The position numbers and the translations under genes are program-made. The notes beneath the pieces were generated by a model, which did no database searches, was not told the DNA's origin, and saw nothing but the letters and a program-made list of their open reading frames with translations. DNA of 64,000 nucleotides from an uncultured Candidatus Saccharibacteria bacterium (GTDB taxonomy: Bacteria; Patescibacteriota; JAUYIX01; CAYNWW01): positions 39,935 to 103,934 of the forward strand of contig CAYNWW010000002.1 in the NCBI GenBank assembly GCA_964401055.1, read 5' to 3'. Shown piece after piece: positions 9,350 through 64,000 of the stretch; the stretch's first letter is position 1, and each line of letters begins with the position of its first letter.

Positions 9350-10232
9350 GGTTTTTTTCGTTTTTGAATATACTCGTGTCAATTTTATCACTAAAATCCC
9401 ATTTTTTGTAAAATGCGAAGGCAAGGCTGGCTACGTTCAAACAAAAATCTTTCAGATCAGAATTATCATGTTTGCGCAGGTCGTTAGAAAGTAATTCTAT
9501 ATCCTTCTGCGCTGTAGCAAATATTAATTCTTTTGCCTCTTTAACTTTTAAATTCTTCCGCTCTAATAAGAACGATACCGCATTCACTTTCCCTTCTTCT
9601 TGCTCTTTTTCAAATGACCTAACATCATTCGCTAGCCTCGTAACAAGAAACAATCTATCGGCGCTTCTAAGAAATTTTTCCAACTCCTTGGCTGACTTAT
9701 GAGCCACTCGCTCATTAGAGAGAATAAAACATGACAAGAATAATGGCGTACCTATACTATACTTACCCTGCTCGATATATTCGCCCTCATCTACTTTAGC
9801 ATGTAATATTCTATTTGTATTTTCAAAAATCATTGCGTCAAGAGTTTTTGATAATGTTTGCTTCCAATAGTCTAGCAAAAATTTTCTTTTCACTTTGCCG
9901 CATAAAGAGTCAGTTATCTCTGAAATAATGCTTTGATAGTCAGCAAAAGCATCAATTTGCTGCTTTTTAAGTCCTGCAGCAAATAGGTCTTTAAATTTTC
10001 TTACATCTGACAGGCTAGCATTTGTATCAAGGTAATCGTCAATAGCAAATAGCCAAAGAACAACCTTGCTTAGAATAAGCTTGCTTTCAATATCAACCTG
10101 AAGCTTTTTCGTTGTATAATCCACAAAAAAACAGCTATTCTCGATACGAGAGCTCCTAACTACTGTGTGCGAATTCGCCCATTGACTAATATCACGTACG
10201 AGCACATCGTATGTACCACTACTATCTTTCAT
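9330..10232 (-). CDS. Class I terpene synthase (small bacterial terpene cyclase fold)
   Basis: A DDxxD metal-binding motif occurs in LWLFAIDDYLD. An NSE/DTE triad, LANDVRSFEKE, lies about 140 residues downstream. The spacing and the 300-aa size fit bacterial class I terpene synthases. Confidence 0.6.
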   Translation of the reverse strand: MKDSSGTYDVLVRDISQWANSHTVVRSSRIENSCFFVDYTTKKLQVDIESKLILSKVVLWLFAIDDYLDTNASLSDVRKFKDLFAAGLKKQQIDAFADYQSIISEITDSLCGKVKRKFLLDYWKQTLSKTLDAMIFENTNRILHAKVDEGEYIEQGKYSIGTPLFLSCFILSNERVAHKSAKELEKFLRSADRLFLVTRLANDVRSFEKEQEEGKVNAVSFLLERKNLKVKEAKELIFATAQKDIELLSNDLRKHDNSDLKDFCLNVASLAFAFYKKWDFSDKIDTSIFKNEKNHVSRNS

Positions 10233-10241
10233 ACACTTAAA

Positions 10242-11621
10242 TTAATAATGACTAAAAAGACTACTTGTTGCATAAAGGCATTTATCAATCCAACAATAGG
10301 TGTTTTTCATAATCCTGGGATTAAAAATCTGCTCAACAAAAGATTTATCTACTAACACTTTATTAAGCAAAATTCTTTCAATATTTATCCAAAACGGATC
10401 ATATTTTAACATTGGCCGATTTAGAACTTTATTCTCTCCAAAGACCTTCAAAATTAACATTGCCGGATAATAAGGAGAGACATGCCACTTATCGTGAAAC
10501 AGTTTGCCCTCTTCTTGAAATTTTAATAACCGCCTGAAAATTTTTTCTTCGACCTCTTTGTCGTTATAACCAACCTCTTGTATAGCCTCTAGCAAATGCG
10601 CAATATGTGATGGACTAGACTCCATTTCTCCCCGAAAACAATAAATCCTATCACCATCAATAAATTTTCTTATAACTTCATGATTTACATCGACATTATT
10701 TTTTGAAAAAATTTTTATCGCGACAGCTGTATCATCCAAATCAGGAATATTTACAAATTTTGACCAACCGATTCCTCTATCATTATTCCAGTATTTTTTT
10801 AAATATTGGACGGCCTCATCTATATCATTCTGTAGATATTTTTCTATTTTAAGGTAATATATCTCACTCAAAACCCACAATCTAGCGAATATATCAATCG
10901 GGTAGTTCACGGGTAGAGCATTTTTAAATTTTTTTAGTGTACCTTTTATATAAGCAAGTGCAGCCTGATTCTTTGTCTTTAGAAACATAAAGGCAGTAGA
11001 CGAAGGGGAATTCAGAAATGATCCGTTCTCTGATTGTTGAACAAGGATCTTCTTATAATCCAGCAGACCCTCCAAGCCCTCCAAAGAATGAAGCAGCGTT
11101 GTCTGGCCGCTATATATATAAGCGACAGGAATCATTTTTAATTTTAGCTCCCTAGCCATTTCGATTTCTTGAATGATCAGACTATCGTACCTAAGCTTAA
11201 TTCCTAAAAACCGCGCAGTTTTTAATAGTGCGGGAAAGATTATCTCAAACCCCACAGTAGCTCGTGCGTCATTCCTTAAATTTTCTAGGTTGGCCGAGAT
11301 ATACTCCTCTCCCCTTTTGATCCTTCTAGGAGAGACGTTCCAGGTTTTTAAAGCAATTATAGAGCTTAATGTGCAGATAATTCTGTCATGATAATATTCT
11401 ATCCCCTTAGCCCCCCACGAGCCGTCAGCAATCTGATGAACCTGTAGCCAGCGAAGACACTCTGGAAACATTGGGCGACTAGGATCTTCTTCGGAGGGAA
11501 TACGCGCAACCCAAGCGGTATCATATGCAGAAGGCGAGATATAGCCTTCATCAATATTGCGGAGCAGTCTTTTTGCCTTTCCAACAAGAGCTCTTTTGAA
11601 TTTTTCCTCTTTTATAAGCAC
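10242..11621 (-). CDS. Class II diterpene cyclase (copalyl/halimadienyl-diphosphate synthase-like, DxDD type)
   Basis: The catalytic DxDD motif occurs as NIPDLDDTAVAI. The N-terminal SAYDTAWVA motif is characteristic of CPS-type class II cyclases. A QW-like QVHQIADGSWG motif is also present. The protein is 459 aa. Confidence 0.65.
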   Translation of the reverse strand: MLIKEEKFKRALVGKAKRLLRNIDEGYISPSAYDTAWVARIPSEEDPSRPMFPECLRWLQVHQIADGSWGAKGIEYYHDRIICTLSSIIALKTWNVSPRRIKRGEEYISANLENLRNDARATVGFEIIFPALLKTARFLGIKLRYDSLIIQEIEMARELKLKMIPVAYIYSGQTTLLHSLEGLEGLLDYKKILVQQSENGSFLNSPSSTAFMFLKTKNQAALAYIKGTLKKFKNALPVNYPIDIFARLWVLSEIYYLKIEKYLQNDIDEAVQYLKKYWNNDRGIGWSKFVNIPDLDDTAVAIKIFSKNNVDVNHEVIRKFIDGDRIYCFRGEMESSPSHIAHLLEAIQEVGYNDKEVEEKIFRRLLKFQEEGKLFHDKWHVSPYYPAMLILKVFGENKVLNRPMLKYDPFWINIERILLNKVLVDKSFVEQIFNPRIMKNTYCWIDKCLYATSSLFSHY

Positions 11622-11692: not shown

Positions 11693-12973
11693 TCATAGGG
11701 AGTACAATTTCTCATCTTCATATATCGGAAATTTCAAAACGAATTCACTGCCAATTCCTCTTTTGCTCTGTACGGTAATTTCTCCCTTGTGCGCGTCCAT
11801 GATCTGTTTTGCTACAAATAGTCCAATGCCATCGCCCTCTTCTCGTTGCACAACATCTTGATGCGATCTATAAAACTTTTGAAATATACGATCAAGATCT
11901 GACGCGTCAATTCCAACACCGGTGTCTTGCACCGATACGCAGCTCATATGCGCATCATCAAACGCAACAACACGCACAGCCCCTCGCTGCGGTGTGTATT
12001 TAATCGCATTTATCAGCACATTATCAATCACTTCAACGACTCGCATTTGATCACAAAAAATTCTTTTCTTTGCTTTCAGATCAGACACCACGCTTAGATG
12101 CTTTTGCACAAAAAGCGGACGCAGCGAGTCAAGCTCTTTTGCAACCAAAAAATTCAAATCAACGACAGTTTTCTCTCCTGACTCAACATTGTGACCTGAC
12201 AATGTTCTCTGCCCAAATCGCCGAATAACCGCATGCAGGTTGTCGGCGGAATTCATTATCGATCGAATATTTACATCGTTCTTCTGATTTTTATCCGTCA
12301 TCTGCAACAACTCAGCATTTCCCTTAATCGCGGTGAGAGGATTTTTCAATTCGTGCGAAGCTTCAGCAAAAAATTGAGACTGCAACTCCGCATGCATACG
12401 CGCAGAATAAATTGCTCCGCCAACTGCATTTGCAACCGCCTCCAAAACATCAACGTCACGATCAAACATAAATTCATCATTGGCAACAAGTGCCAAGCCG
12501 CCTATCACTTTCTTGCCAAGCTTGATCGGTAAGGCAATAAACAATTTATATCGAAACATCGCCTGCAGCACGTCACAATTACGCTTAGAAACAATAGGAA
12601 ATAAAATATCAGATAGTCGCGTCGTAGTAAACAATTTTCCTTCCCGCAATGCACGCGCCGATAGTAACGTTGGGTGATTCACATCTAGTACGAGGCCGGC
12701 CAGCGCTTTTTGTGAAAATTTTTCCAAGAAATTTTGAAATTTATATGGCATTTGCACTCGTACGACACGAAATGTTTTTTCGTCCTTGCTCATAAGCGTA
12801 ATGCCAGAAACGCGATATCCAAGTTGAACCAAGAGCTCCTTGAGTGCAATGCGACAAATATCGTCTACATCAAAGTTTCCCGATATTTTTGCAGATACAC
12901 TTTTAATTAAGCTCAGCTGAGCCTTATATGTTGCAATTATCTCATCTTCAGTCGGATAAAGTCTCTTTGTCAT
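11693..12973 (-). CDS. Cytoplasmic sensor histidine kinase (GAF + HisKA + HATPase_c). It probably starts at the Met of AMTKRL, giving an ATGA overlap with the upstream HK stop.
   Basis: The H-box is ASHELKNPLTAIKGNAELLQ; the C-terminal ATPase boxes are DTGVGIDASDL..GDGIGLFVAKQ. I checked the ATGA overlap directly in the sequence (cat at 12971-12973, tca at 12970-12972). Confidence 0.8.
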   Translation of the reverse strand: MTKRLYPTEDEIIATYKAQLSLIKSVSAKISGNFDVDDICRIALKELLVQLGYRVSGITLMSKDEKTFRVVRVQMPYKFQNFLEKFSQKALAGLVLDVNHPTLLSARALREGKLFTTTRLSDILFPIVSKRNCDVLQAMFRYKLFIALPIKLGKKVIGGLALVANDEFMFDRDVDVLEAVANAVGGAIYSARMHAELQSQFFAEASHELKNPLTAIKGNAELLQMTDKNQKNDVNIRSIMNSADNLHAVIRRFGQRTLSGHNVESGEKTVVDLNFLVAKELDSLRPLFVQKHLSVVSDLKAKKRIFCDQMRVVEVIDNVLINAIKYTPQRGAVRVVAFDDAHMSCVSVQDTGVGIDASDLDRIFQKFYRSHQDVVQREEGDGIGLFVAKQIMDAHKGEITVQSKRGIGSEFVLKFPIYEDEKLYSL

Positions 12974-14898
12974 AGCGGTATTTGCACAACAAACTCCGCA
13001 CCCTTCCCTATCTCGCTCTTCACGCTTATCGTCCCACCATGCGTCTCCACGATTGACTTGCAAATCGCAAGCCCGAGGCCGGTGCCACCAAGTGCCTGAT
13101 CGCGCTCCTTGTCGACTCGGAAAAATCGCTGAAAAAGAAGTGGAATTTTATCAGCCGGAATCCCGGGACCAAAATCACGTACGGTAAAATGACACATATT
13201 CTGCTTCTTGTACGCGTTGATCAAAATACGCTCGTTGCTCGGGCTGTATTTAATAGCATTGCTTATCAAATTCGAAACAACCTGAGCCATTCCATCCCCA
13301 TCGAAAAACCCGATCAGCGGCGACTGCACGCTCGTCTCAAATCGGACACGTTTTGTGTTTGCCAAAGGCCTCAAAGCCTCGAGCTCGCGAAAAAAAATAT
13401 CAGCAATATCCACATTTTCACGGTGCAATTCGCGCGAACCACTTTCTTGTTGAGACAACAAAAGCAACTGACTGACCGCTCGCGTCATGCGATTGGCAGA
13501 CTGAATAATGTGATGCAACGCATCGCGCGACTTATCACCCGCAACAGGATTCAACAAGGAAACCATTTCCGCATTTCCTTTAATTGAGGCGAGTGGATTT
13601 TTCAACTCGTGCGACGTATTTGCCAAAAATAAAACCTGAGCTTCGTTCAATTTCTGCAGCTCTTTGACGTGAGCGCGCAAATCCTGAGAAAGCTGTGCGT
13701 GCTCGATTGAGCTCGCGATATGATGCGCAAATGTTTGCAGGAGATCGAGCTCCGATTCCGTTGTTCCGTCGGTAAATTTCGAAACAGAAAGCACTCCGAT
13801 GGCATGGTCGCCCACGATCAAAGGTATGGCCACAACTGTTTTGACGCCAACAGCTTTTTGCACAAGCTGAGCTGCTGCGTTGTTAATGAGTGGATGTGCA
13901 GCTTCGCCATAATCATTCGTCACAAAAACTTTTTTATCACAAAACGCACGCACAAATATATTTTTCTTATCTTCAAGAGAAAATTCAACCTGCGAGAGCG
14001 CCGTGTTGATCGCAAAACCGAATATATGCTTCTGAGTTTCGGTCGCGGCTAACTTCTCGAGGACCAACTTATTTTGTCTCTGGATAAATAATCCCGAAAT
14101 ATCATATCCAAATTGTTTACGTAAGCTCGCAGTAATTGCATCAAATACCTCTTTCACATCAAGCGACTGATTAATCAATGCCGTGGACTCAAGTATGGAC
14201 TTGAGCTGGTCTGATTGTTTTTTTACAAAAGCAATTTGCTTCTGATTTTCCTCAAACTTTTGCGCATTGGAGAGCGCGACTGCGATTTGATTTGCAAATG
14301 TCTGATAGAGCTGCGTATCGGTTTCGCTTATTCGCGCATCCTCAAATCCCATCGTAATCACGCCGATGGACTTTTGTTGCACAAGCAGCGGGATGGCTAT
14401 CGCACTTTTTGATCCCGCCAATCGCTGAAACCCACGGCCCACATACGCAGGAGCAACTCCGCGCACAAAGTCAGCAAAATCTTCAGAATACAACATGCGC
14501 TGCTCAACAAAAGAGCGAACAACAATATTTTCCCTCTGTTCAAGTAGAAAATAGAGACTATTAATTTTCTGCTTCATAGCCTTCTCTACAAAGCGGACTG
14601 CGCGGGTACTGTTATTTGTTCCCTTGCACACTAAGCGCTGCGCCAGCTCATCCCACAAAAATAGCGTTGGCGTTTTTATACCCACGATTCCCGACACCCG
14701 GAATAAAATATGATCAATAAGTTTATTTGTATTATTGATACTGGATATTTCTTGAAGTATGGATTGAAAAATTGTCAGGATGTGCGCGGCCGATTTTACC
14801 TCATTCGACACCTGCTGCAGCCCAATCAACTGATCAACAAAACGCCGCTCCGCGCCCGTCGCCTGTTCTTGTTTTTGCTCAGTATTGATCAGCGTCAT
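12970..14898 (-). CDS. Cytoplasmic sensor histidine kinase with tandem GAF domains, HisKA and HATPase_c
   Basis: The H-box is NTSHELKNPLASIKGNAEMV; it has two GAF-like regions, ATPase boxes at the C-terminus, and no TM segment. Confidence 0.8.
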   Translation of the reverse strand: MTLINTEQKQEQATGAERRFVDQLIGLQQVSNEVKSAAHILTIFQSILQEISSINNTNKLIDHILFRVSGIVGIKTPTLFLWDELAQRLVCKGTNNSTRAVRFVEKAMKQKINSLYFLLEQRENIVVRSFVEQRMLYSEDFADFVRGVAPAYVGRGFQRLAGSKSAIAIPLLVQQKSIGVITMGFEDARISETDTQLYQTFANQIAVALSNAQKFEENQKQIAFVKKQSDQLKSILESTALINQSLDVKEVFDAITASLRKQFGYDISGLFIQRQNKLVLEKLAATETQKHIFGFAINTALSQVEFSLEDKKNIFVRAFCDKKVFVTNDYGEAAHPLINNAAAQLVQKAVGVKTVVAIPLIVGDHAIGVLSVSKFTDGTTESELDLLQTFAHHIASSIEHAQLSQDLRAHVKELQKLNEAQVLFLANTSHELKNPLASIKGNAEMVSLLNPVAGDKSRDALHHIIQSANRMTRAVSQLLLLSQQESGSRELHRENVDIADIFFRELEALRPLANTKRVRFETSVQSPLIGFFDGDGMAQVVSNLISNAIKYSPSNERILINAYKKQNMCHFTVRDFGPGIPADKIPLLFQRFFRVDKERDQALGGTGLGLAICKSIVETHGGTISVKSEIGKGAEFVVQIPL

Positions 14899-14906
14899 CG
14901 TATGTA

Positions 14907-15869
14907 TTAAGACTTTTTCTTCACCCGCGAGCGAGCGCGACGACTCACCCCGGCAGCCCCACGTTTTTTTGCAGCGACTGCATGCCGTTTCTTTGCCACA
15001 GCCCGAGCCGCAAACTCTGCAGCGGCCACCTTCGCGGCTCTATTCTTGTGATATGGACGCGGCGCCCCAGAATCAGACTCGGCACTAGCCCCGTCAGCCC
15101 CGCCCACTTTCACCAAAATCGGCCGCAACGCCGAAGGCCGCACATAATTTTGCGCATGTGCCCGCGCCGCAGCGCCTTTGAGTTTTTCCAGCTTATACCC
15201 CACACCATGCTGCGTATGAATGAGCTGATCAGCGCCCGCACACCCCAACGCCTTTCGCAAAAAACGAATATGCACGTCGATCGTATTTGTAAACGGATCC
15301 GTGTTCATGTCCCACACTTGCTCGAGCAGCATTGTGCGCGTCAACACCATCTCGGGATTGCGCAAAAAATATTCGAGCAGCGCAAATTCTTTTTTTCCAA
15401 GGGCCACCTCCCGACCGGCACGTTTCACAATTCGCTTTGGCAAATCCATTTCAATATCCTCATAAGTCAGCACTGAGCCACCCGCCTTCCCCGAAGAAAC
15501 AATCTCTCGCCGACTCAACGCACGAATCCGCGCAAGCAATTCTTCAAAAGAAAATGGCTTTGTTAAATAATCATCAGCACCCGAATCCAGCGCCGCCACT
15601 TTTGTTTGAGTGTCGTCCTTGGCAGTCAACAGCAAAATAGGTTTTGTTTTATTTTTCACTCCGTGCTCACGAAGCTGGCGGGTCAACTCCAGCCCGTCCA
15701 TCACCGGCATACTGATATCAAAAATAAATAAATCATACGGGTTTGTTTTTGCCAAATACAAACCCTCACCCCCGTCGTGCGCCACATCAACCACATGATG
15801 AAACGTGCGCAAGCCCTTACTCACAAAATTACTGATCGCCGGCTCATCCTCAACAAAAAGGATCTTCAT
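14907..15869 (-). CDS. OmpR-family response regulator (REC + winged-helix) with a ~90-aa Lys/Arg/Ala-rich C-terminal tail
   Basis: The N-terminus MKILFVEDEPAISNFVSKGL...DLFIFDISMPVMDGLEL is a receiver domain; a Trans_reg_C segment follows (LTRTMLLEQVWD..GVGYKL); the tail ...AKVAAAEFAARAVAKKRHAVAAKKRGAAGVSRRARSRVKKKS follows that. Confidence 0.85.
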   Translation of the reverse strand: MKILFVEDEPAISNFVSKGLRTFHHVVDVAHDGGEGLYLAKTNPYDLFIFDISMPVMDGLELTRQLREHGVKNKTKPILLLTAKDDTQTKVAALDSGADDYLTKPFSFEELLARIRALSRREIVSSGKAGGSVLTYEDIEMDLPKRIVKRAGREVALGKKEFALLEYFLRNPEMVLTRTMLLEQVWDMNTDPFTNTIDVHIRFLRKALGCAGADQLIHTQHGVGYKLEKLKGAAARAHAQNYVRPSALRPILVKVGGADGASAESDSGAPRPYHKNRAAKVAAAEFAARAVAKKRHAVAAKKRGAAGVSRRARSRVKKKS

Positions 15870-54827: not shown

Positions 54828-56588
54828 ATGCTCGAACCAAAAAAAGAGCTTACTTCACTTGAAAAAATGCGCCATTCGACTGCGCATACGCTGGCCATGG
54901 CTGTTTTGGAAATTTTCCCTGCTGCGAAATTGGGTATTGGCCCGGTTATTGAGGATGGATTTTATTATGACTTTGAGCTGCCGCGCGCGCTGACCGACAA
55001 AGAGCTGGTAGATATTGAAAAGCGCATGAAAAAAATTATTAAGCTTGGTCTGCCATTCGAACAAGTGTTTTTGTCACAGGATGAGGCGCGCGCGCAGTTG
55101 GCGGCGCAGCCCTACAAACTTGAGCTGCTTGCCGAAATTCTGGATGAGCGTGTGTCATTTTTCAAAAACGCAGACAAGTTTATGGATTTGTGCCGTGGGC
55201 CGCATGCGGCGTCGACCGGCGCGATCGGCGCATTCAAGATTTTGCATACGGCCGGCGCGTATTGGCGAGGTGATGAAAAAAATAAGATGCTGACACGCAT
55301 TTACGGCACCGCGTGGGAAACACAAGAAGAGCTCGACGCATACCTTGCGCGCGTGGAAGACGCCAAGCGCCGCGATCACAAAAAACTCGGCAAAGATTTG
55401 GATTTATTTTTCTTTGATGCGGAAGTTGGCAAGGGTTTGCCGATGTGGACACCCAAAGGCACGGCGATCAAATTTGAGTTGGAGAAATTTACGCGCGAGC
55501 TCGAGCGCCACTATGGCTACGAGCACGTCGAGACGCCGTATTTGGCGCAAGAGACGCTCTACAAAACCAGCGGCCATCTCGCCCACTATCGCGCAAACAT
55601 GTACAAGCCGATCGACATGGATGGCGACGAATTTTATTTGCGACCGATGGCATGTCCGCACCACATCAAAATGTTTATGCGCAAGCCGGTGAGCTACAAG
55701 CAGATGCCGGTGCGGTTTGCCGAGATTGCGGATTACAATCGGTTTGAAAAATCCGGCGAACTCATGGGCATGATTCGCGTGCGCAAATTTACGTTGACGG
55801 ACGGTCATTTGTTTGTGACTCCCGATGGGCTCAAAGACGAATTCAAGCGCGTCTGTCAAATGATTCAGGAAGGAATTCGCGGCCTGGGAATTGAAGAGAA
55901 AGTCTCCTATCGATTTTCCAAACACGACCCGGCGGATCAGGAAAAATATTATCCGGATGCGGAATTGTGGCGCAAATCAGAGACGACGATGAAAGAGGCG
56001 CTTGATGAATTGGGGTTAAAATATGTCGAGGCTACGGGTGAGGCTGCGTTTTACGGGCCGAAACTCGACGTCCAGTTTCGCAACGTGAATGGCAAAGAAG
56101 ATACCGCATTTACCGCGCAGATGGACTTTTTGCTGCCAGAAAAATTTGATATTTCCTACATTGGCGCGGATGGTTCGAAGATGCGGCCGGTAATGATTCA
56201 TCGCTCGACGATCGGCGCGCTGGAGCGCACGTTTGCGTTCTTAATTGAGCACTATGCCGGCGCGTTTCCATTGTGGATGTCGCCGTTTCATGTTGCGGTG
56301 CTGCCTGTGTCAGATGCATTCACGCCATTTGCCCGCGAATTTGCGGCCGAGATGGATGCCCTTGGTATTCGCGCGCAAGTCGCGGACGAAACCGAGAGCG
56401 TGGGCAAAAAAATCCGCGCTGCTGAAATGGAAAAGTTCCCCTACATCATCGTCGTGGGTGAAAAAGAAGTCGCGGGTGGCGATTTGATGGTGCGCGTGCG
56501 CGGTCAAAAAGATCAGCGCAGCATGACACGCGCGGCATTTTTGGAGATGGTTGTGGAACGACTCAAGGTGCGAGGGCTGGAACTATAG
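54828..56588 (+). CDS. thrS: Threonyl-tRNA synthetase, short form lacking the N-terminal TGS domain
   Basis: It has the editing-domain HSTAHTLAMAV, class II motifs (RDHKKLGKDLDLFFF; FRVRKFTLTDGHLF; ...GPKLDVQF) and a C-terminal anticodon-binding domain. Confidence 0.9.
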   Translation: MLEPKKELTSLEKMRHSTAHTLAMAVLEIFPAAKLGIGPVIEDGFYYDFELPRALTDKELVDIEKRMKKIIKLGLPFEQVFLSQDEARAQLAAQPYKLELLAEILDERVSFFKNADKFMDLCRGPHAASTGAIGAFKILHTAGAYWRGDEKNKMLTRIYGTAWETQEELDAYLARVEDAKRRDHKKLGKDLDLFFFDAEVGKGLPMWTPKGTAIKFELEKFTRELERHYGYEHVETPYLAQETLYKTSGHLAHYRANMYKPIDMDGDEFYLRPMACPHHIKMFMRKPVSYKQMPVRFAEIADYNRFEKSGELMGMIRVRKFTLTDGHLFVTPDGLKDEFKRVCQMIQEGIRGLGIEEKVSYRFSKHDPADQEKYYPDAELWRKSETTMKEALDELGLKYVEATGEAAFYGPKLDVQFRNVNGKEDTAFTAQMDFLLPEKFDISYIGADGSKMRPVMIHRSTIGALERTFAFLIEHYAGAFPLWMSPFHVAVLPVSDAFTPFAREFAAEMDALGIRAQVADETESVGKKIRAAEMEKFPYIIVVGEKEVAGGDLMVRVRGQKDQRSMTRAAFLEMVVERLKVRGLEL

Positions 56589-57552
56589 CTTTGTTTGCGG
56601 CAGCACCAGATCAGGATATTTCGTCTTGTACTGCTTTGACACATCTAGGATAAAATCTTGAGCGGAATCGCCCAACAAATCCGTGTATGCTGCTCCGATT
56701 TGTTCGATTGCGTGCACGCCAACCTCGGTACTTACCCCCTCTGCGATGACAAATTCACCGCCTTGTCGGGGCTCAACAATAGCAACTTCACTCAAACGCG
56801 CGAGCGCAATTTCTGCACCAATCAGACTGGAGAATTTTTTCACAATTGCCTCAATAAGCTGCGCATATGGATTTTCGTAAGATGAATAATGCTCAAGTGT
56901 TTCTGCGTAAGCGTCGGCAAGATCCTTGCGTAATTTGCCGGCCGTATAAACAATGAAGGATGAAACGACCAAATATGCAATTGCTCCAATATGATATTTT
57001 ATAATGATTTGAGCCACTACGCTGTCTAGGCTAAAAAACACTCCTCCAAATTCTTGAAGTGAGGCAATCGCAGTAAATAAAGTCACGAGGAACAGTCTAT
57101 GTTGCGACTTCTTGAGAGACCCAGTAATAAAGCTCTCACTTCGATACATCTCCTGGCCAAGAAAGCACGAATGAACGGCGACCAGCCATCTTAAAAAATC
57201 GCTTCACACCAAGAAACCCAAGAAAAGAAGATAAAACATAGAAAAGCGGGAAAAGCCCGGCGATTGGGCTTGACTGATATTCATAGCCAACAATAAAAAA
57301 CAGCGTGTAGCCGAGCACATTTGCGACGCCATACATCGTGAGCCCAGCGGCAAGCAATCGCCAAGCGACCCAAAACTTGCCTCTCAGTTTCTCAGCAGTC
57401 AACATGCGGAGACCGGCGTAAAATGCCAGCGAAGCAGTGAGGACGTAAAATAAGTTTTCAATTTTGCTTGTCGCGGTTACATTAGGTATTTTCCCAACCG
57501 TCTCTCCTGCAAAAAATAGTATCCACAGTAACAAAAAAGTAGTAACAGTCAA
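56583..57552 (-). pseudogene. Paralog C of the membrane protein family, split into two overlapping ORFs (57136..57552 and 56583..57149): either a frameshifted pseudogene or a naturally split gene.
   Basis: The N-terminal ORF carries LRGKFWVAWR and FKMAGRRSFVLSWPG; the C-terminal ORF carries NPYAQLIEAIVKKFSSLIGAEIA and YTDLLGDSAQDF. Paralogs A, B and D encode these regions as one polypeptide. The two ORFs overlap by 14 nt in different frames. Confidence 0.5.
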
Positions 57553-57614: not shown

Positions 57615-59399
57615 TTAGTTTTGATCAAGCGGAATAAAACAATAAAAAGTACTCCCTAGTCCCTCTTCAGAGCTCACCCCAACAATCCCTCGATGCGCTT
57701 CAACAATTCCTTTCGCAATAGCAAGACCGAGACCCGTTCCCTTTTTTTCACTTTTTACCCTTCCGTTCACCTGCTTAAACTTGCTAAAAAGACTAGGTAT
57801 ATCACTTGGAGCAATGCCAACCCCACTATCCGTGACGGCAACAAATATACCGGGCGGCAATTTCTTGAGTCTTTCCTCGGAGTCCTTAATAAACCATTCA
57901 ATAGAGGCAGCTCCAGCCTCAGCTGCAATATCACCCGCATTTGCATGCATCAAGACGCTAATGGTGACTCGGCCGCCTTTTCCGGTAAATTTAAGCGAAT
58001 TAGATATAAAATTGTTCAAAACTTGACCGATTTTATTTGCGTCAAACAAAATCATCTCCGGTACGTGCTCGTCAATCACTGCATGTAGCTTGATTCCAGA
58101 ATCTTTTGCCAAGGGGCCAAATGCATGAACTTTCGCCTTAACCACATCTCGAATATTTGATGGTTCCACAAAAATTTGAAATTTTCCTGCTTCTATTTTT
58201 GCTTGATCAAGAAGATCATTTACTAGTTCAATCATGCTCTCCACATTACTACCCATGAGCGAAATCATTTCCTTATACTCTTTTTTTCCTGGCTTGAGAA
58301 TTCCCTCTTTAAGAAGCTGAATAGTTGAAGAAGTTCCCACAAGCGGCGTTCGCAGCTCATGCACCATCATAGATGTAAAATCTTCACGCAATCGCTCAAC
58401 TTCTTTTTCGTGAGTGATATCATGAAAAATTACTACACCGCCAAGTATTTCTTCTCCCGAAACTCCAGTTTTATTCTCGACAGGAGATACAAAAATTTGA
58501 TAAAACCTATCATGAACAAGAACATCATCTAGCGTGATTATCTTTTTCAATTTTACGCTTTCCTCAAGACGGCCTCTGATATCAAATGCACCGCCCAAGC
58601 CGTCTATAAGATCAAAAATTAAAACTTCAATTTTCTCTTCAATGCCGACGATTTTTTTTGCAGCGGGATTTATTGCCAAAATCCGATACTCCTTGTCAGT
58701 CATAACAATCCCCTCAACCATACTCTCTATCATAGAGTTGAGCTTCCGTTGTTCGTTTTCGACAACATCCTGAAGTCTACTTACGGCCTGTGATGCCTGC
58801 TTTGTAATTTTATACAAAATACTTGTTTCACTTTCGTTGTACTGACCTTCTTTTGTGTCAGCAACAGTCAATACACCAACTACCTTATTGCCAATCACCA
58901 GCGGTATATTGAAAAATGACCGAACAGGATCTTGAATTTCATCAACAGTAATTGCGCCAGAAATTACCGGTTCAACCTGACTTTTACTCAAATCTTTATC
59001 CAATAAAGCGGAGAGCGACTTAAGCATACGCCCTTTTATATCTTCGATAAACAGAGGCGAAACCGATCTCTCAAGATTTGCTTTAAAAATTATTTTCTCG
59101 GGCCCCAAAAGCATATAAGATACAACGCTATAATCCATAAAGGAGCGCAGTGATCCCGTAATCATGTCAGCAACATTCTGGACGTTGAGCGAATACCCAA
59201 CTCGCTCACCCAAATCCTTCAAAATCGCCAATTCATACAGACGATGACTAATTTCCTTTTCTTTCTTTTCGTTCTCTGTTTTGATTTTTTTCTCGAGCTC
59301 CTTTAGTCTGACGTCAACCCTCCTCCCTCTCAAAAATACAAACACAGTTGCACCAATAGACAGCACTAAAGCGGAAAAAAGTATGACGAGATCAGACAT
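57615..59399 (-). CDS. Membrane-anchored sensor histidine kinase (TM - GAF - PAS-like - HisKA - HATPase_c)
   Basis: It has an N-terminal TM (LVILFSALVLSIGATVFVFL), an H-box MVHELRTPLVGTSSTIQLL, and ATPase boxes (DSGVGIAPSD..GTGLGLAIAKG). Confidence 0.85.
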   Translation of the reverse strand: MSDLVILFSALVLSIGATVFVFLRGRRVDVRLKELEKKIKTENEKKEKEISHRLYELAILKDLGERVGYSLNVQNVADMITGSLRSFMDYSVVSYMLLGPEKIIFKANLERSVSPLFIEDIKGRMLKSLSALLDKDLSKSQVEPVISGAITVDEIQDPVRSFFNIPLVIGNKVVGVLTVADTKEGQYNESETSILYKITKQASQAVSRLQDVVENEQRKLNSMIESMVEGIVMTDKEYRILAINPAAKKIVGIEEKIEVLIFDLIDGLGGAFDIRGRLEESVKLKKIITLDDVLVHDRFYQIFVSPVENKTGVSGEEILGGVVIFHDITHEKEVERLREDFTSMMVHELRTPLVGTSSTIQLLKEGILKPGKKEYKEMISLMGSNVESMIELVNDLLDQAKIEAGKFQIFVEPSNIRDVVKAKVHAFGPLAKDSGIKLHAVIDEHVPEMILFDANKIGQVLNNFISNSLKFTGKGGRVTISVLMHANAGDIAAEAGAASIEWFIKDSEERLKKLPPGIFVAVTDSGVGIAPSDIPSLFSKFKQVNGRVKSEKKGTGLGLAIAKGIVEAHRGIVGVSSEEGLGSTFYCFIPLDQN

Positions 59400-59406
59400 G
59401 TCGTAT

Positions 59407-60129
59407 CTATTGAATAACTTTTTTAATCAAGCCGACCGACTTATAGAATCCGTAAGCAACAAAGAAATACGCCGGAAAAGTTATTAGTTGCTCAACCTTC
59501 TCAATAAAACTGGCGTCAAACATCAAAACCTTCCAGCTCTCCGTCAATAGCTCCCAGAAATGGGATATGCCGTAAAGCCCGAGAGCCACAACAAGCGGAG
59601 AAACAATAACGCGTATTGCAGGCAACAATCTTTCCTTTGCCATAAGCAGATAAAGTGCGGCACCGGTTCCGAGAACAAATGAGATAAAATGGACAAGTCC
59701 GGCTCGATCAATCAATCCCCCCTCAAAAGCTTGCAAAGAACCATCCAATGAAGGAAGTGCGATAATCCAGAGCATAGCAAAAACCAACGATCCAACGGCC
59801 GACATCTTTGCGACAAACCACGAAGGCTCCTTTTTCTTTTCAGCTTCGAATCCAAGAAGCATTTTGCCGGCTACGAGGTATGCGATAGTTGACAACCAAT
59901 GAAGCGCGTGCCAACCGAGTTGCATTGTGAACTCACCAACGCTGATAATTTCAGATTCATTCAGAAACAAAAAAATGCGAACTGTTCCAAGAAAAAATGT
60001 TCCAATCAAAAAGTAGACCACCGAAGTCCCAATCACAGACTTTCTATACAAATGCGTTAGCTGAAAAGCAAGAAAAAGCGACCACAAAACCAACAAAAAG
60101 CTGACAAAATCCATCATGATAAATCCCAT
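59407..60129 (-). CDS. Hypothetical polytopic membrane protein (240 aa, ~7 TM) between two histidine-kinase genes
   Basis: The hydrophobicity pattern shows about seven TM segments; I recognise no motif. Confidence 0.4.
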   Translation of the reverse strand: MGFIMMDFVSFLLVLWSLFLAFQLTHLYRKSVIGTSVVYFLIGTFFLGTVRIFLFLNESEIISVGEFTMQLGWHALHWLSTIAYLVAGKMLLGFEAEKKKEPSWFVAKMSAVGSLVFAMLWIIALPSLDGSLQAFEGGLIDRAGLVHFISFVLGTGAALYLLMAKERLLPAIRVIVSPLVVALGLYGISHFWELLTESWKVLMFDASFIEKVEQLITFPAYFFVAYGFYKSVGLIKKVIQ

Positions 60130-60156
60130 ATTATTTTGTAATTTTTTTTATTTACC

Positions 60157-60426
60157 CTAATCAATCTTTTTTACCGAAGGATACTTAACAAATACCGAGC
60201 TCAATGCGTTTTTCACGATCAGGCCAGAAAGCTCAACATATTGATCAATAAGCTTCTGCACAACCACTTGCGGATCACCGGTAATTTCCAAAACAACGCC
60301 TTTATCTGATATCACAAGCTCTTGTACTCGCTTGGCTCGCGCAATAGCCATCTGTGGACCAAGTATAATTGCCTGCTTTTGAATAACCTCTCCGATTAAC
60401 GACTTGTATTGTTCTTTTTCGTCCAT
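60157..60426 (-). CDS. Hypothetical small protein (89 aa)
   Basis: An ORF with a coding-like composition between the HK genes; no recognisable motif. Confidence 0.3.
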   Translation of the reverse strand: MDEKEQYKSLIGEVIQKQAIILGPQMAIARAKRVQELVISDKGVVLEITGDPQVVVQKLIDQYVELSGLIVKNALSSVFVKYPSVKKID

Positions 60427-60465
60427 AGAGTTTTAATAATTTTTCTAAATATTATTTTAATTATA

Positions 60466-62231
60466 TCACACAGGAAACTTAAACCAGAATGTACTTCCTC
60501 GCCCTTCCTCAGAAGTAAACCCGATAGACCCGCCTTGCTGCTCAATAAAATACCGCGCAACGGAAAGGCTTAAACCAGGAGCATCGGGAACGGCTAGTAT
60601 TGCGTTTTGAGAGCGAAAAAATCTTGAAAAGATCTTTTGCTTATCTACTTCTGGTATGCCAATTCCGGTATCCTTTACCTCAAAACGAACATATTTTTTT
60701 CCATTCGGATCGAAACGGTTACTGTGCCGCCAGAGCCGGTATACACAAATGAATTCCTCAGCAACTCAGCTATGATAAATCTGAGCTTTCTCGTATCAGC
60801 CAAAACCGTTACGGGCTTTTCTTTATTCGCTAAAAGCCGACAATCTATTCCTTTTGCATCATATTTTTTCTTCCAAAAAATAAGCTCAGACTTCACAAGA
60901 TCATTCAGCAAAAAACTTTCTTTGGTGAATTGAACGCGACCCTCTTCAATATCAATCGCAGTCAGAAGATCGTCTAGGCGGTTAATTATTTCGCCATCAG
61001 CGTTATATACAATTTGCAAAAAGTCTTTTTGATTTTTTTTCATCGCACCAAGCTCGCCGGCAAGCATCACTTCAAGGTTCCATCGTATTGATGTAAGCGG
61101 AGTTCTGAGCTGATGAGACATAACTCGAATAAATGCACTTTTCATCTGATCAAGCTTACTGACTTTTTCAAAGCTTTCCTCGATACTTTCGGCCATAGAA
61201 TTAATTCCGCGGCCTACTTCTGCGACCTCATCGCTTTGGTTGCTAGGAACATTTACGCGAGCTTTAAAGTTTCCGCGCTTTATTTGATCCAAAACAGTTT
61301 GCTTTTCCTTAATGCGCGAAGTAAACCTTTTGCCAAAAATAAATGCGATCATCAACACAAGTACATCTATGCCAAGCATCAATGCTCCCAACTCGATGGC
61401 ATGTTTACGCGCATCTTTATCAAGAATACCCTTATCGATTTCTACTACCGTAATCCAAGGGGTATTTTTCGAACAAAACACGGCGCCAAAAACTCGTTTC
61501 CCTTCGTAATTCAAATGCTCATCGATGATTTTTTTATCAGCATCAATACACTCGCCAATTTCTTTTGTTTCAGCCTTGTAAACAAGCGACTTATCAGGAT
61601 TGTCAAAAAATGATGCGCCGATAATAAGCTTATTCTGATCTACAAGATACGAAGCATATTCATCCCGAGGCGCGCTCGCAAGAATCTTGTTTAACTCCCG
61701 AATATCCACATGATTTATTATGACCCCAATCGTTTTTCCAGTACTCAAATCCACAATCGGCGCTGCCGCATGAAAAAATGGTATATCATGGTGGCCCGGT
61801 TCAATCTCAAGTAAAAAACCACCTGCGACGGGCTTGCCAAAATCACTTTCCAATCCTTTTAGGAACCCATATTCTCGGTCCAGATCTTCAAGGTCCTGCG
61901 TGTCATTGTAGTCAAGCCGGTCCAGTTCAGTTGAAACCATTATTCTACCCGAAACATCGCGAATATCGGTGAGTACGACATCGTCATCAAGAGACACATT
62001 CTTTGCCTTTATATAAGCTGACAATTCTTCAGCTTTTAATCGATCACGGGTCTTTAAAAGCGAGGCAAACTCTTTTCGTATATGCCCATCCAGCGACCAA
62101 TCAGCAACTCTTGCTTTGTTTATTTCAAAAAATTGAGGAATTTGATTTTCTATAATCTTTGCAGTTGCCTCAATACGAGCTTTGCGGTCTTCAAAGCTGG
62201 ACTTCATATCTTTTTGATACATATAATACAA
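60466..62231 (-). pseudogene. Sensor histidine kinase (periplasmic Cache-like sensor - TM - HAMP - HisKA - HATPase_c) with an apparent frameshift in a homopolymeric A7 tract (plus-strand T7 at 60694-60700) that truncates the ATPase domain. The track ORF 60675..62231 ends prematurely after the N-box.
   Basis: The track protein ends ...ELLRNSFVYTGSGGTVTVSIRMEKNMFVLR*. My translation of the adjacent frame continues ...YVRFEVKDTGIGIPEVDKQKIFSRFFRSQNAILAVPDAPGLSLSVARYFIEQQGGSIGFTSEEGRGSTFWFKFPV* (G1/G2 boxes), and one extra A would fuse the two frames. The annotated start is TTG, and an in-frame upstream segment encodes a TM1-like KLAIIFVFVSILPING with no ATG. Confidence 0.6.
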
Positions 62232-62310
62232 GCCGCCATTAATCGGGAGGATTGAAACAAAAACAAATATGATCGCGAGTTTTTGTTTTAAGTTTAGGCG
62301 TGGGATGTAT

Positions 62311-63456
62311 TTATTTAGAGTGTCGCGCGGTTGGCAATATCACTTCCGGATTTCTTGCGCGAATGCCGGCAGTCACATCAGCCGCAAATTCTAGCGCAGA
62401 ATCACCAAGCAAATCATGATATACATTCAGTACCTTTTCCATATTATACTGTCCCGATTCTTTTGATATGTTTTCAACAACACGAAAACCCAATTCATCT
62501 TTCGTCAATTCAACCACATCTATATTCGTAACTCTGGCAAGTGCAATTTCTTTTCCTACAAGATCGCAAATCTTGCGAATAATGGCCTCAAGCGCAGCCG
62601 AATGCGGATTCTTTAACGCAGAGACATGCTCGACTTGATTGGGAGATTGATAAATTGCCTTAATACTGCTCCACGCCCCCCGGTGAACAACATACCAAAA
62701 CACCCACAAAAACGCCCACAGGAATGGGGCCACAAAAGAACTGACTTCGGATGCTCCTTCCTTAAAAAGTGCCGCCAGTAACGGGAGGGCCAATGCGGCG
62801 CAAATGAAAACTCCCCGCGATAGACTCTTTTGCACCTTGTTCAATGAGCCCGTAACATATATCGAACTCCCCCGGAATCCAAAAGCAGCGCTTACTATAA
62901 GTGCAGCATTAAACCCAATAACTACCGAAAGCACTCCAACAAACGAATTAATCGGTTCAAAATTGGCATTTAATAAAAACACAAGCACCACAAACAAGGA
63001 AGGAATAATTAAGACACCAGGAAAACTGAGAAAAAAGTTTCTTTTGCCGGCCATTTTGTAAAATTTAAATGGGGCAATAAAAAGAAAGACGGCGCAAATT
63101 GTTTTTAGAAGAGTTGAGGCTAGAAAAGCGGTTCCCGTATTAAACAACGAATACACGCCACCCCATATGACCAACTCGCCCAAAATATAGAGAATGACTC
63201 CGCGGGCATACGATCGCCAGCCTGACCAAAATTTCCCTTTCAGCTGCGTAAATTTCCAAACTATTGGAAGTGTTGCGGCGCCTACGGTAACATTGAGGGT
63301 GTGAAATAGTGCATATAACCGCCTACCAAGTAGAGACTCCTGAGCAACGTGTTCAAAGTCCCTCGAAAAAACCCAAAAGAATTCCAACAAAAATACGATA
63401 ATCGCACAAACAATATATATCAGAATCTTCACTCTACCTGATTGTTGTTTTGTCAT
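62311..63456 (-). CDS. Paralog D of the membrane protein family, immediately upstream of the Cache/HAMP histidine kinase
   Basis: It shares the motifs LKGKFWSGWRSY, YKMAGKRNFFLSFPG, NPHSAALEAIIRKICDLVGKEIA and YHDLLGDSALEFAADVTAGIRARNPEV. Confidence 0.6.
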   Translation of the reverse strand: MTKQQSGRVKILIYIVCAIIVFLLEFFWVFSRDFEHVAQESLLGRRLYALFHTLNVTVGAATLPIVWKFTQLKGKFWSGWRSYARGVILYILGELVIWGGVYSLFNTGTAFLASTLLKTICAVFLFIAPFKFYKMAGKRNFFLSFPGVLIIPSLFVVLVFLLNANFEPINSFVGVLSVVIGFNAALIVSAAFGFRGSSIYVTGSLNKVQKSLSRGVFICAALALPLLAALFKEGASEVSSFVAPFLWAFLWVFWYVVHRGAWSSIKAIYQSPNQVEHVSALKNPHSAALEAIIRKICDLVGKEIALARVTNIDVVELTKDELGFRVVENISKESGQYNMEKVLNVYHDLLGDSALEFAADVTAGIRARNPEVILPTARHSK

Positions 63457-63506
63457 ATATAATTTTACTTTTGCGTTTATTATACAGCATTGCTATGATG
63501 TTAGCC

Positions 63507-64000
63507 ATGAATACGACCCACCAGAACGCTAAAACTTACCATATTTTGACCTATGGCTGCCAGATGAACGAGGCTGATTCCGAGCGGATCGCCGGCGTTT
63601 TTGAGTCGGTCGGAATGCGACGGGCGGCGCGTGAGCGTGACGCGGATTATATTGTCGTAAATACGTGCTCCGTGCGGCAAAAAGCCGAGGATCGCGTGTA
63701 TGGGAAAATGCTTGTGTATGAGGATATTAAGCGCGAGCGGCCGTCGACCAAGATTATTGTGACCGGCTGTATGATTGGGAAGGTGTCGCGGAATTATAAA
63801 AAAGACAACGCGGCTGCGATTTTGAAACGCTTGAAGCACAATTTGCCGATCGTGGATTATTTCATGGACATCAGCAATTTGGATCTGTTTCGCGAGCAGC
63901 TGCAACACGACAATGTGTCGGAAGAATTGCTCATGCAGTTGCGCAGCGAGACCAATTATCTCGAAGTGCAGCCTGTCTATGACAAGCGTTATAAGGCATA
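63507..64000 (+). CDS. Radical-SAM methylthiotransferase (MiaB/RimO family), 5' portion, truncated by the window end (an alternative in-frame start is at 63495).
   Basis: My translation reads MNTTHQNAKTYHILTYGCQMNEADSERIAGVFESVGMRRA...DYIVVNTCSVRQKAEDRVYG...IIVTGCM, which matches the MTTase N-terminal domain with its conserved Cys triad. It is not in the ORF track because no stop falls in the window. Confidence 0.7.
   Translation, partial: MNTTHQNAKTYHILTYGCQMNEADSERIAGVFESVGMRRAARERDADYIVVNTCSVRQKAEDRVYGKMLVYEDIKRERPSTKIIVTGCMIGKVSRNYKKDNAAAILKRLKHNLPIVDYFMDISNLDLFREQLQHDNVSEELLMQLRSETNYLEVQPVYDKRYKA

Follow-up and report, generated by a model that had tools for sequence, protein, structure and literature searches.

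An orphan sensor histidine kinase gene of a Patescibacteria genome, frame-broken at an A7 tract and best read as a young or segregating pseudogene

In Bordetella pertussis, the sensor kinase gene bvgS carries a C6/C7 tract, and a one-base change in the length of this tract truncates the kinase (PMC1891110). In Campylobacter jejuni, A and T tracts within flgR shift the reading frame, and flgS is also phase-variable (PMC3930126). A/T tracts no longer than 7 nt have been regarded as relatively stable when genomes are screened for phase-variable genes (PMC1891110). The gene described here, a sensor histidine kinase gene encoded on the minus strand of the window (the whole 64-kb stretch of DNA analysed), resembles bvgS in that a single-base change in a coding homopolymer of modest length truncates the kinase, and flgR/flgS in that A/T homopolymers within two-component coding sequence shift the frame. 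For bvgS, however, both alleles have been observed and their interconversion shown, whereas the window presents one allele, at an A/T tract of background length, in an environmental MAG. Likewise, in Campylobacter both reversible ON/OFF switching and revertants were shown by experiment. One more described system, dnaX, shares with this gene an A-rich zero-frame heptamer of the type X_XXY_YYZ (A_AAA_AAG in dnaX), a stop codon a short way past it and possibly a stem downstream.

The closest relatives by architecture are the HisKA-family HK853/PhoR/WalK-like kinases of Patescibacteria MAGs (P0003, P0004 and P0005), of which the domain order, TM1–dCache-like–TM2–HAMP–HisKA–HATPase_c, is identical to that of the window kinase, and with which the H, N, G1 and F boxes are common. 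In contrast to these relatives, the window kinase has a broken ATPase frame, ATC in place of ATG, GLSL in place of GLGL at the G2 box and no adjacent regulator. Based on the sequence, the translation, Pfam and gap-free alignment to P0003 and P0004, the whole disrupted gene extends over 60466..62306, from a putative start codon ATC to the natural stop codon TGA, and would comprise 613 codons if the tract were A8. Hydropathy peaks at residues 10-28 and 303-325 mark two transmembrane segments, which correspond to the coding segments of TM1 (LAIIFVFVSILPINGGLYY; 62223..62279, Kyte-Doolittle 1.6-1.9) and TM2 (61332..61400, up to 2.6). The extracytoplasmic dCache-like sensor domain between them (61440..62162) matched Pfam dCache_1 with E = 5.3e-8 and 33 bits, under the gathering cut-off of 45, and PF02743 matches are precomputed for both public versions of the protein (P0001 and P0121). 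Further downstream follow HAMP (61176..61334; E = 1.4e-6, 28.9 bits against a cut-off of 25), HisKA (DHp; 60942..61145; E = 5.6e-10) and the frameshift-split catalytic ATP-binding domain HATPase_c (60472..60797), the last assigned by Pfam, alignments and conserved columns. The H-box SHQLRTPL is intact, and all eight conserved columns of its region (F392, S397, H398, L400-L404) are matched. No NCBIfam equivalog reached its cut-off.

As assembled, the minus-strand ORF with the TTG start (60675..62231) terminates with FVYTGSGGTVTVSIRMEKNMFVLR at a premature TAA (60675..60677), six codons past the A7 tract (plus-strand T7, 60694..60700), which lies at codon 535 of 613, close to the 3' end of the gene. 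The DHp and ATPase domains are not encoded in a single continuous frame, and the frame is disrupted relative to that of intact homologs. The original prediction held that the ORF ends just after the N-box, that the missing G1 and G2 boxes lie in the adjacent frame up to a stop near 60466, and that one extra A in the tract would join the two frames; all three points stood. The N-box is in the upstream frame, while the −1 frame, YVRFEVKDTGIGIPEVDKQKIFSRFFRSQNAILAVPDAPGLSLSVARYFIEQQGGSIGFTSEEGRGSTFWFKFPV, carries the G1, F and G2 boxes and closes with the TGA (60466..60468) that naturally ends the full-length kinase frame. Addition of one A generates the junction IRMEKKYVRFEVKDTG and a full-length kinase ending at this TGA, in which Pfam recognizes HATPase_c as a single unbroken match (E = 7.8e-22, covering positions 2-108 of the 111 in the profile). 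Aligned to the homologs P0003, P0004, P0010, P0027 and P0054, the repaired protein shows no gaps, and its kinase core aligns to the HK853 structures (2c2a/3dge) in a single stretch spanning the break (E ~1e-29). Homology to relatives runs in frame 0 as far as SIRMEK and resumes in frame −1 at YVRFEV, so that the break site is bracketed by homology on both sides; because the A8 repair gives one-stretch, gap-free alignments, the lesion is confined to about 10 nt including the tract. A −2 repair (A5) restores the frame too, but leaves the protein one residue shorter than the already gap-free A8 repair. The tail frame contains no ATG, GTG or TTG that would give an ORF of at least 40 aa, and a kinase split into two separately translated parts is therefore unlikely.

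Apart from the break and the ATC at the start, the gene shows almost no decay. Among 115 homologs, 29 columns reach a conservation of at least 85 %, and the window kinase matches 27 of them, equal to the median of the family (116 members), indicating no accumulation of substitutions beyond the family norm, and neither frame contains further stops. Once the frames are joined, N518, D546, G548, G550, F560, F563, G578 and L579 of the ATPase domain are all kept; at the G2 glycine column, the window has a rare Ser, found in two of 116 sequences, the window included, and this substitution speaks for loss of function. Downstream of the break, 14 of 15 highly conserved columns are kept, and the lesion is therefore either very recent, unreal or bypassed. 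So little decay fits only a very young pseudogene, and fits an intact or rescued gene equally well.

The reading that we prefer, and to which we attach about even confidence, is that of a real, very recent loss-of-function allele of an orphan transmembrane sensor histidine kinase in a deep-branching Patescibacteria/Paceibacterota MAG. An ancestral A8 tract (GAA AAA AAA TAT, encoding E-K-K-Y) would have contracted to A7 via replication slippage, shifting the ATP-binding boxes G1, F and G2 into another frame and bringing translation to a stop six codons on. The truncated product would retain the phospho-acceptor domain and lack the ATPase, and could then not support autophosphorylation. We infer that A8 and ATG were the ancestral states, that the present allele has reached fixation or is at least common among the population, and that the gene no longer works. 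A young or segregating pseudogene is the best reading of this orphan sensor kinase: ordinary young loss of function is most likely, a consensus error is less likely, and a special switch is not likely. If so, the locus adds one more recently inactivated, lineage-specific sensor gene to a reduced Patescibacteria genome, and matters little beyond that.

The first question to be considered is whether the A7 tract is real. If the tract reflects an error of sequencing or of the consensus, or an allele of the minority taken up by the assemblers, the true gene would be an intact A8 version with the ATC start as its sole true oddity. The out-of-frame tail, conserved and stop-free as described above, is what such an error would leave behind, and the lesion falls exactly in a homopolymer. 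The organism seems to be poorly covered in run SRR12487045: the Logan contig of this run (L008) measures just 4.2 kb, and Logan lacks the adjacent genes P0122, P0126 and P0127. Against these points, L008 is 100 % identical to window positions 60637-64000 (3364 nt) and reproduces both A7 and ATC, although both assemblies may derive from the same reads; recovery of A7 by a second assembler argues against a pure assembly artefact. Complete identity between assemblies over 3.4 kb would also suggest that the reads were accurate short reads. With such reads, consensus indel errors are rare at tracts of 7-8 nt. A systematic homopolymer error is also unlikely, since among the 60 A/T tracts of at least 7 nt inside ORFs of at least 100 aa only that at 60694-60700 interrupts a frame, the other 59, including nine A8/T8 tracts, being in frame. 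The window is 91 % coding, and no other gene broken at a homopolymer was found in the gene map and the inspected gaps; three other kinases, among them that at 11693-13147, and one response regulator are intact. Many adjacent-gene junctions were flagged as frameshifts by a mechanical census, and none of them was a broken gene after mapping and gap inspection. Finally, no protein with the A8 junction or with the tail at high identity was detected among 5.8 billion. Taken together, a consensus error appears unlikely.

The same tract census bears on phase variation, in which slipped-strand mispairing would toggle the gene between A7 (OFF) and A8 (ON) and make it a contingency kinase. The frequency of indels is raised at any tract of 7-8 nt. 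Homopolymer switching in two-component genes has precedent, as noted above, and the present allele is what an OFF state would look like, carrying no other decay, so that reversion would restore function; the same holds for a young pseudogene or a sequencing error. The length of the A7 tract, however, is ordinary for this genome: in 64 kb there are 72 A/T tracts of at least 7 nt against about 83 expected from a third-order Markov model of the window, and none exceeds 8 nt. The tract is near the 3' end of the gene rather than its 5' end, and the same gene contains an in-frame A8 tract (GAMKKNQKD; 61033..61040). Only A7 was seen, in two identical assemblies that may share reads, and loss of the ATG would leave any ON state weak. 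Thus nothing marks this homopolymer as the phase-variation switch for which it had been taken as a candidate, and we consider such a switch quite improbable. The original prediction had left the choice between an unusual start, decay and phase variation; the frame break and the lack of a canonical start for TM1 proved real, while a dedicated switch found no support. A mixture of A7 and A8, or a junction peptide, would if found point to stochastic or recoded signalling control in an uncultivated episymbiont lineage. We know of no description of either form of control in this lineage.

Alternatively, the A7 allele might work as it is through recoding. In the zero frame the tract reads GA_A AAA AAU, and a −1 ribosomal frameshift on A_AAA_AAU, or slippage of RNA polymerase, would yield some full-length kinase next to an ATPase-less truncated protein, as tau and gamma are both made from dnaX; translation would begin at AUC, perhaps through coupling to the stop of the preceding gene, which lies 5 nt away. 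The register of the heptamer is correct, the −1 shift leading into the full-length frame as EK(N/K)YVRFEV and on through YVRFEVKDTG, and conservation of the tail is in agreement with its use. On the other hand, one third of A-runs are in heptamer register by chance, and, since the homologs are all in frame and lack an A-run at the position of the break, the shift is not conserved. An A7 tract is also short for efficient transcriptional slippage. In dnaX the short product comes from the shifted frame, which terminates early, whereas this gene would need the shift for its long product; the A-site codon is AAU rather than AAG, and no Shine-Dalgarno-like stimulator is present upstream of the tract.

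Folding z-scores provided a weak lead to RNA structure downstream of the tract (60603..60687). A predicted 9-bp stem, CGUUUUGAG (60687-60679) with CUCAAAACG (60611-60603), starts 5 nt past the heptamer. Inside this stem lies an AU-rich hairpin, of which the palindrome AAAAGATCTTTT (60627-60638) is a part. The 94-nt fold has a z-score of about −2.2, compared with −0.75 to +0.97 in the equivalent regions of five intact kinases, but 7 of 200 shuffles fold as well as the long-range structure, and the proximal 54 nt are unstable (z = −0.6). Recoding at this tract is judged to be highly unlikely. Equally remote is its complete form, in which the gene would be alive via AUC initiation just after the upstream ORFan combined with a −1 frameshift or transcriptional slip, setting a fixed, low ratio of full-length to DHp-only protein. 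If true, no recoded two-component sensor would, to our knowledge, have been described before, nor any case of recoding in the candidate phyla radiation; a milder version would be true contingency switching between A7 and A8 in a symbiont of the Patescibacteria.

The truncated product might instead be functional in itself, as a DHp-only phosphatase, an anti-kinase or a heterodimer partner of the kinase encoded at 57615-59399. Integrity of the H-box and DHp domain would permit such a role, and this second kinase gene lies in the same orientation, three genes downstream. The cut, however, falls within the HATPase_c fold past the N-box and not at a domain boundary, the preserved tail would have no reason to persist, and no homolog with such an architecture was found. 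A function of this kind is barely credible.

The start region contains the other anomaly of the gene. As predicted originally, the first canonical start candidates are TTG (62229..62231), located inside TM1, and, three codons downstream, the ATG at 62222. Upstream of this TTG, the frame is open back to the TGA at 62342-62340 and encodes NKYIPRLNLKQKLAIIFVFVSILPINGG, with no in-frame ATG, GTG or TTG in between. The TM1 segment sits upstream of TTG 62231 and ATG 62222, overlapping both in part. Judging from hydropathy and alignment to the TM1 of homologs, with which it shares the motif [S/T]-x-[I/L/V]-P-[I/L/F], this hydrophobic segment is a genuine TM1. It had been pointed out that orthologs lacking such a segment would speak against this assignment; every full-length homolog has TM1. 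The claim that no start precedes TM1 was correct for ATG and GTG, but an in-frame ATC (62304..62306) had been overlooked. This is the only in-frame codon upstream of TM1 that differs from ATG by one base, and it lies one codon upstream of the aligned Met of homologs, within ATC-CCA-CGC-CTA-AAC-TTA-AAA (I-P-R-L-N-L-K), beginning 5 nt past the TAA stop of the upstream gene (62313-62311). In all nine homologs, the N-terminal Met is placed 4-7 residues ahead of the alignable TM1 (for example, MSIKWKF, MSIRIKLM, MKINLKLAL and MRINLRNKVL).

ATC is a permitted but weak initiator under table 11. In E. coli, initiation from AUC reaches about 0.02-3 % of that from AUG (bioRxiv 10.1101/063800). The start context is uninformative in this case, because most genes here lack a Shine-Dalgarno sequence. 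Under the preferred reading of a young loss-of-function allele, the ATC in the region of the initiator Met of relatives could be a further lesion, from ATG to ATC, or else a non-canonical start of low efficiency. Products begun at TTG 62231, ATG 62222 or ATG 62207 would lack TM1, and such products of the first canonical codons could not place the sensor domain outside the cell. The public gene calls, of 510 aa from ATG 62207 (P0001) and of 515 aa from 62222 (P0121), mask the lost TM1 and the lost ATPase domain alike. Fusion of TM1 to the upstream 381-aa membrane ORF, after the example of the 1055-aa homolog P0010, was rejected because this ORF gave no BLASTP match to P0010 and has no homolog, a +1 shift would be needed, and nine homologs start here. 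The 89-aa ORF that lies downstream and the C-terminal end of the upstream ORF look alike by eye, but a domain common to both was likewise rejected, as the two gave no BLASTP match.

Relatives of the gene are all distant. The best full-length homolog is 37 % identical (37-38 % for the repaired protein with P0003 and P0004); the protein search returned the window's own sequence and homologs of 45 % identity or less, the scan of genome contigs only distant kinases and no close ortholog, and that of metagenome contigs no related locus. The threonyl-tRNA synthetase of the window (ThrRS) is 63 % identical to its best match, and no close relatives were found. An alternative genetic code was also considered and set aside, the tRNA-Trp having the anticodon CCA with no sign of UGA reassignment. 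Scanning of 59300-63700 for promoters and terminators gave no more matches than in shuffled sequences. No response regulator is located near the kinase, the neighbours being either without Pfam or NCBIfam match or another kinase; the only response regulator of the window is encoded at 14907-15869, 45 kb away, beside other kinases.

Re-reading of the minus strand between 60300 and 62600, together with a listing of its ORFs, bore out in all details the original prediction that a frameshift cuts the ATPase domain off the sensor kinase. The truncated kinase ORF (60675..62231, minus strand, 518 aa) begins at a TTG and ends with ...FVYTGSGGTVTVSIRMEKNMFVLR* at a TAA at 60677-60675. The sequence reading places an A7 tract at 60694-60700 on the minus strand, and the adjacent frame from 60693 encodes YVRFEVKDTGIGIPEVDKQKIFSRFFRSQNAILAVPDAPGLSLSVARYFIEQQGGSIGFTSEEGRGSTFWFKFPV*, with its stop, TGA, at 60468-60466. 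Insertion of one A gives ...IRMEKKYVRFEVKDTG... across the break; removal of two As also restores the frame, with a protein one residue shorter. In the repaired protein, Pfam HATPase_c is matched in one stretch spanning the break (profile positions 2-108 of 111, E = 7.8e-22), HAMP and HisKA are also matched, and dCache_1 reaches 33 bits, under its cut-off of 45. The kinase core aligned in a single stretch with the solved HK853 (2c2a/3dge; E ~1e-29), and the A8 version, carrying the added A, aligned gap-free with five homologs around the break. Homology in frame 0 extends to SIRMEK and that in the −1 frame begins at YVRFEV, indicating that the lesion is confined to the tract. In the kinase-core alignment with 115 homologs, 29 columns were conserved at 85 % or more; the kinase matches 27 of these, which is the family median, and keeps 14 of the 15 located downstream of the break. 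Only one deviation is rare: the G2 box has Ser in place of its second Gly (GLSL vs GLGL), a residue found in 2 of 116 sequences. The broken-off tail is not decayed.

The frame upstream of the TTG at 62231 is open back to a TGA at 62342-62340, encodes NKYIPRLNLKQKLAIIFVFVSILPINGG and contains no in-frame ATG, GTG or TTG within this interval. The hydrophobic segment encoded there is the real TM1, as originally proposed. All full-length homologs start with Met, followed by 4-7 mostly basic residues and a TM1 that can be aligned and has a conserved Pro, as in P0004 (MSIKWKFILIFGLITFVPIF), P0005 (MKFTTKLIAIFILISIVPIL), P0040 (MKINLKLALIILELTLIPFF), P0054 (MRINLRNKVLILLAAVSLIPL) and P0029 (MKITQKFILLMLSIGLVPTL); the refuting case named originally, orthologs also lacking the segment, did not hold. 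The homolog P0003 had been called too short; its DNA gives the true start ATG AGC ATC AGG ATC AAA TTG ATG..., encoding MSIRIKLMLVFFIVSLIPIF. The N-terminal reading of the kinase in the window is I-P-R-L-N-L-K-Q-K-L-A-I-I-F-V-F-V-S-I-L-P-I, and hydropathy gave exactly two transmembrane peaks, residues 10-28 and 303-325 when numbered from the ATC. This ATC (ATC-CCA at 62306-62301) lies one codon upstream of the aligned homolog Met, and begins 5 nt past the TAA of the upstream gene; no other in-frame codon before TM1 is a single base away from ATG. The absence of a canonical codon before TM1 had thus been correctly noted, but the ATC candidate start had been overlooked. The codon may have arisen from ATG by mutation or may itself act as a weak start. 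The efficiency of AUC as a start in E. coli is about 1-2 % of that of AUG, with construct-dependent values of 0.02-3 % (bioRxiv 10.1101/063800). Starts at TTG 62231, at ATG 62222 (Logan call, P0121) or at ATG 62207 (NCBI call, P0001) all exclude TM1, and would therefore give the wrong membrane topology. Most genes of the window have only AT-rich leaders and no Shine-Dalgarno sequence, so that its absence at the ATC is uninformative. A GGAGG-like sequence precedes only about 5 of the 43 confidently called genes, most of the leaders being AT-rich, which suggests that initiation in this organism is largely independent of Shine-Dalgarno pairing. Several leaders finish with ..ATAC(N) right before the start, as does that of the ATC candidate (TAAATAC-ATC).

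The pristine tail and the position of the lesion at a homopolymer would both fit an error in the consensus, but two assemblies are concordant and the other 59 coding tracts are in frame. Exact-sequence look-up of the truncated protein identified a second record, P0121 (515 aa), in the Logan assembly of run SRR12487045. A contig of that assembly, L008, is 100 % identical to window positions 60637-64000 over 3364 nt, including the A7 and ATC region; a different assembler thus yields the same allele, from reads that may be the same. L008 terminates at 60637, not at the A7 tract but inside a perfect 12-nt palindrome, AAAAGATCTTTT (60627-60638), which lies within the kinase tail, has a single copy in the window (0.04 expected) and probably explains the contig break. 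By a greedy gene map, 91 % of the window is coding, and inspection of every gap of more than 250 nt revealed no other broken gene. The window contains 72 A/T tracts of at least 7 nt (61 of 7 nt, 11 of 8 nt and none longer), close to the roughly 83 expected from a third-order Markov model of the whole window. Sixty are within ORFs of at least 100 aa, including nine A8/T8 tracts, one of which (61033-61040) is in the kinase gene itself, and the frame is interrupted only at 60694-60700. The three other kinases and the OmpR-type regulator are intact, and there is no sign of systematic homopolymer error.

The original interpretation held in part: of the three options that it offered (an unusual start codon, decay or phase variation), decay is the best reading and phase variation is not supported. 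Switching at homopolymers has clear precedent in two-component genes, such as the C6/C7 tract of Bordetella bvgS (PMC1891110) and the A/T tracts of Campylobacter flgR and flgS (PMC3930126), but the tract examined here is of background length, is located at codon 535 of 613 and showed no polymorphism between the two assemblies; in the Bordetella study, A/T tracts up to 7 nt long were regarded as relatively stable (PMC1891110). Recoding is a low-probability lead. The zero-frame tract, A_AAA_AAU, is a canonical X_XXY_YYZ heptamer on which a −1 slip would yield precisely the full-length frame, and a predicted 9-bp stem (CGUUUUGAG/CUCAAAACG) begins 5 nt downstream. The 94-nt fold downstream of the tract gave z = −2.2 (7 of 200 shuffles fold as well), and equivalent regions of three intact kinases of the same genome and the two nearest homologs ranged from −0.75 to +0.97. 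The proximal 54 nt, however, are not stable (z = −0.6), the heptamer register has a one-in-three prior, and the homologs all lack an A-run at this site. A functional DHp-only protein is unlikely, as the truncation point is internal to the ATPase fold and the tail has been preserved, and a split kinase is also unlikely because the ORF listing contains no start codon belonging to the tail frame.

The most economical reading is that replication slippage contracted an A8 tract to A7, with ATC standing in place of ATG in the same gene. The zero-frame product retains the DHp domain with its His but lacks the ATP-binding half, which makes autophosphorylation impossible. Relaxed selection is suggested by the co-occurrence of two anomalies in one gene with a rare substitution in the G2 box; since other decay is nearly absent, the inactivation would be very recent or still segregating.

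No response regulator is located near the kinase gene, its neighbours being ORFans or another kinase, and this orphan gene is thus plausibly dispensable. The ORF directly upstream (62311-63456, minus strand) encodes a multi-pass membrane protein of 381 aa with no Pfam or NCBIfam match and no homolog beyond its own record among 5.8 billion proteins. No family matches were found for the co-oriented ORFs 60157-60426, 59407-60129, 57136-57552 and 56583-57149, placing the kinase within a block of lineage-specific genes. The closest full-length kinase homologs are 37-38 % identical (partial matches, at most 48 %), no NCBIfam equivalog reached its cut-off for the kinase, and scans of species-representative genomes and JGI metagenomes detected no related locus. 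The best ThrRS match, 63 % identical, is from Buchananbacteria, and all named ThrRS matches are Patescibacteria (Buchananbacteria, Pacebacteria and Paceibacterota). The kinase protein is an ordinary member of the HisKA-family HK853/PhoR/WalK-like sensors. The lesion type, a coding homopolymer altered by one base, is textbook; the kinase is a divergent new protein of a known sensor type, carrying a known kind of defect, and no result obtained here places it in a new category.

The three intact kinases of the window are cytoplasmic GAF or GAF-PAS histidine kinases of 424, 642 and 594 aa (11693-14898 and 57615-59399, minus strand). Only one response regulator is present in the 64 kb, so that kinases outnumber regulators to a high degree for a small genome. 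This OmpR-type protein (14907-15869, minus strand; Response_reg, residues 3-116; Trans_reg_C, 152-227) has a putative Ala-, Arg- and Lys-rich tail of about 90 additional aa (…AAKVAAAEFAARAVAKKRHAVAAKKRGAAGVSRRARSRVKKKS). This tail, either real or a read-through artefact, overlaps the frame that lies open upstream of the next kinase gene (12970-14898). Two terpene synthase genes lie side by side at 9330-11621 (minus strand): a class II-type cyclase of 459 aa (Pfam Terpene_synth N-terminal domain, weak SQHop_cyclase_C, DLDD motif; TAA at 10244-10242) and, in the same frame from an ATG at 10232, a class I synthase of about 300 aa (Terpene_syn_C_2, E = 5e-20; DDYLD motif). A capacity for diterpene-type biosynthesis seems unusual in a reduced Patescibacteria genome.
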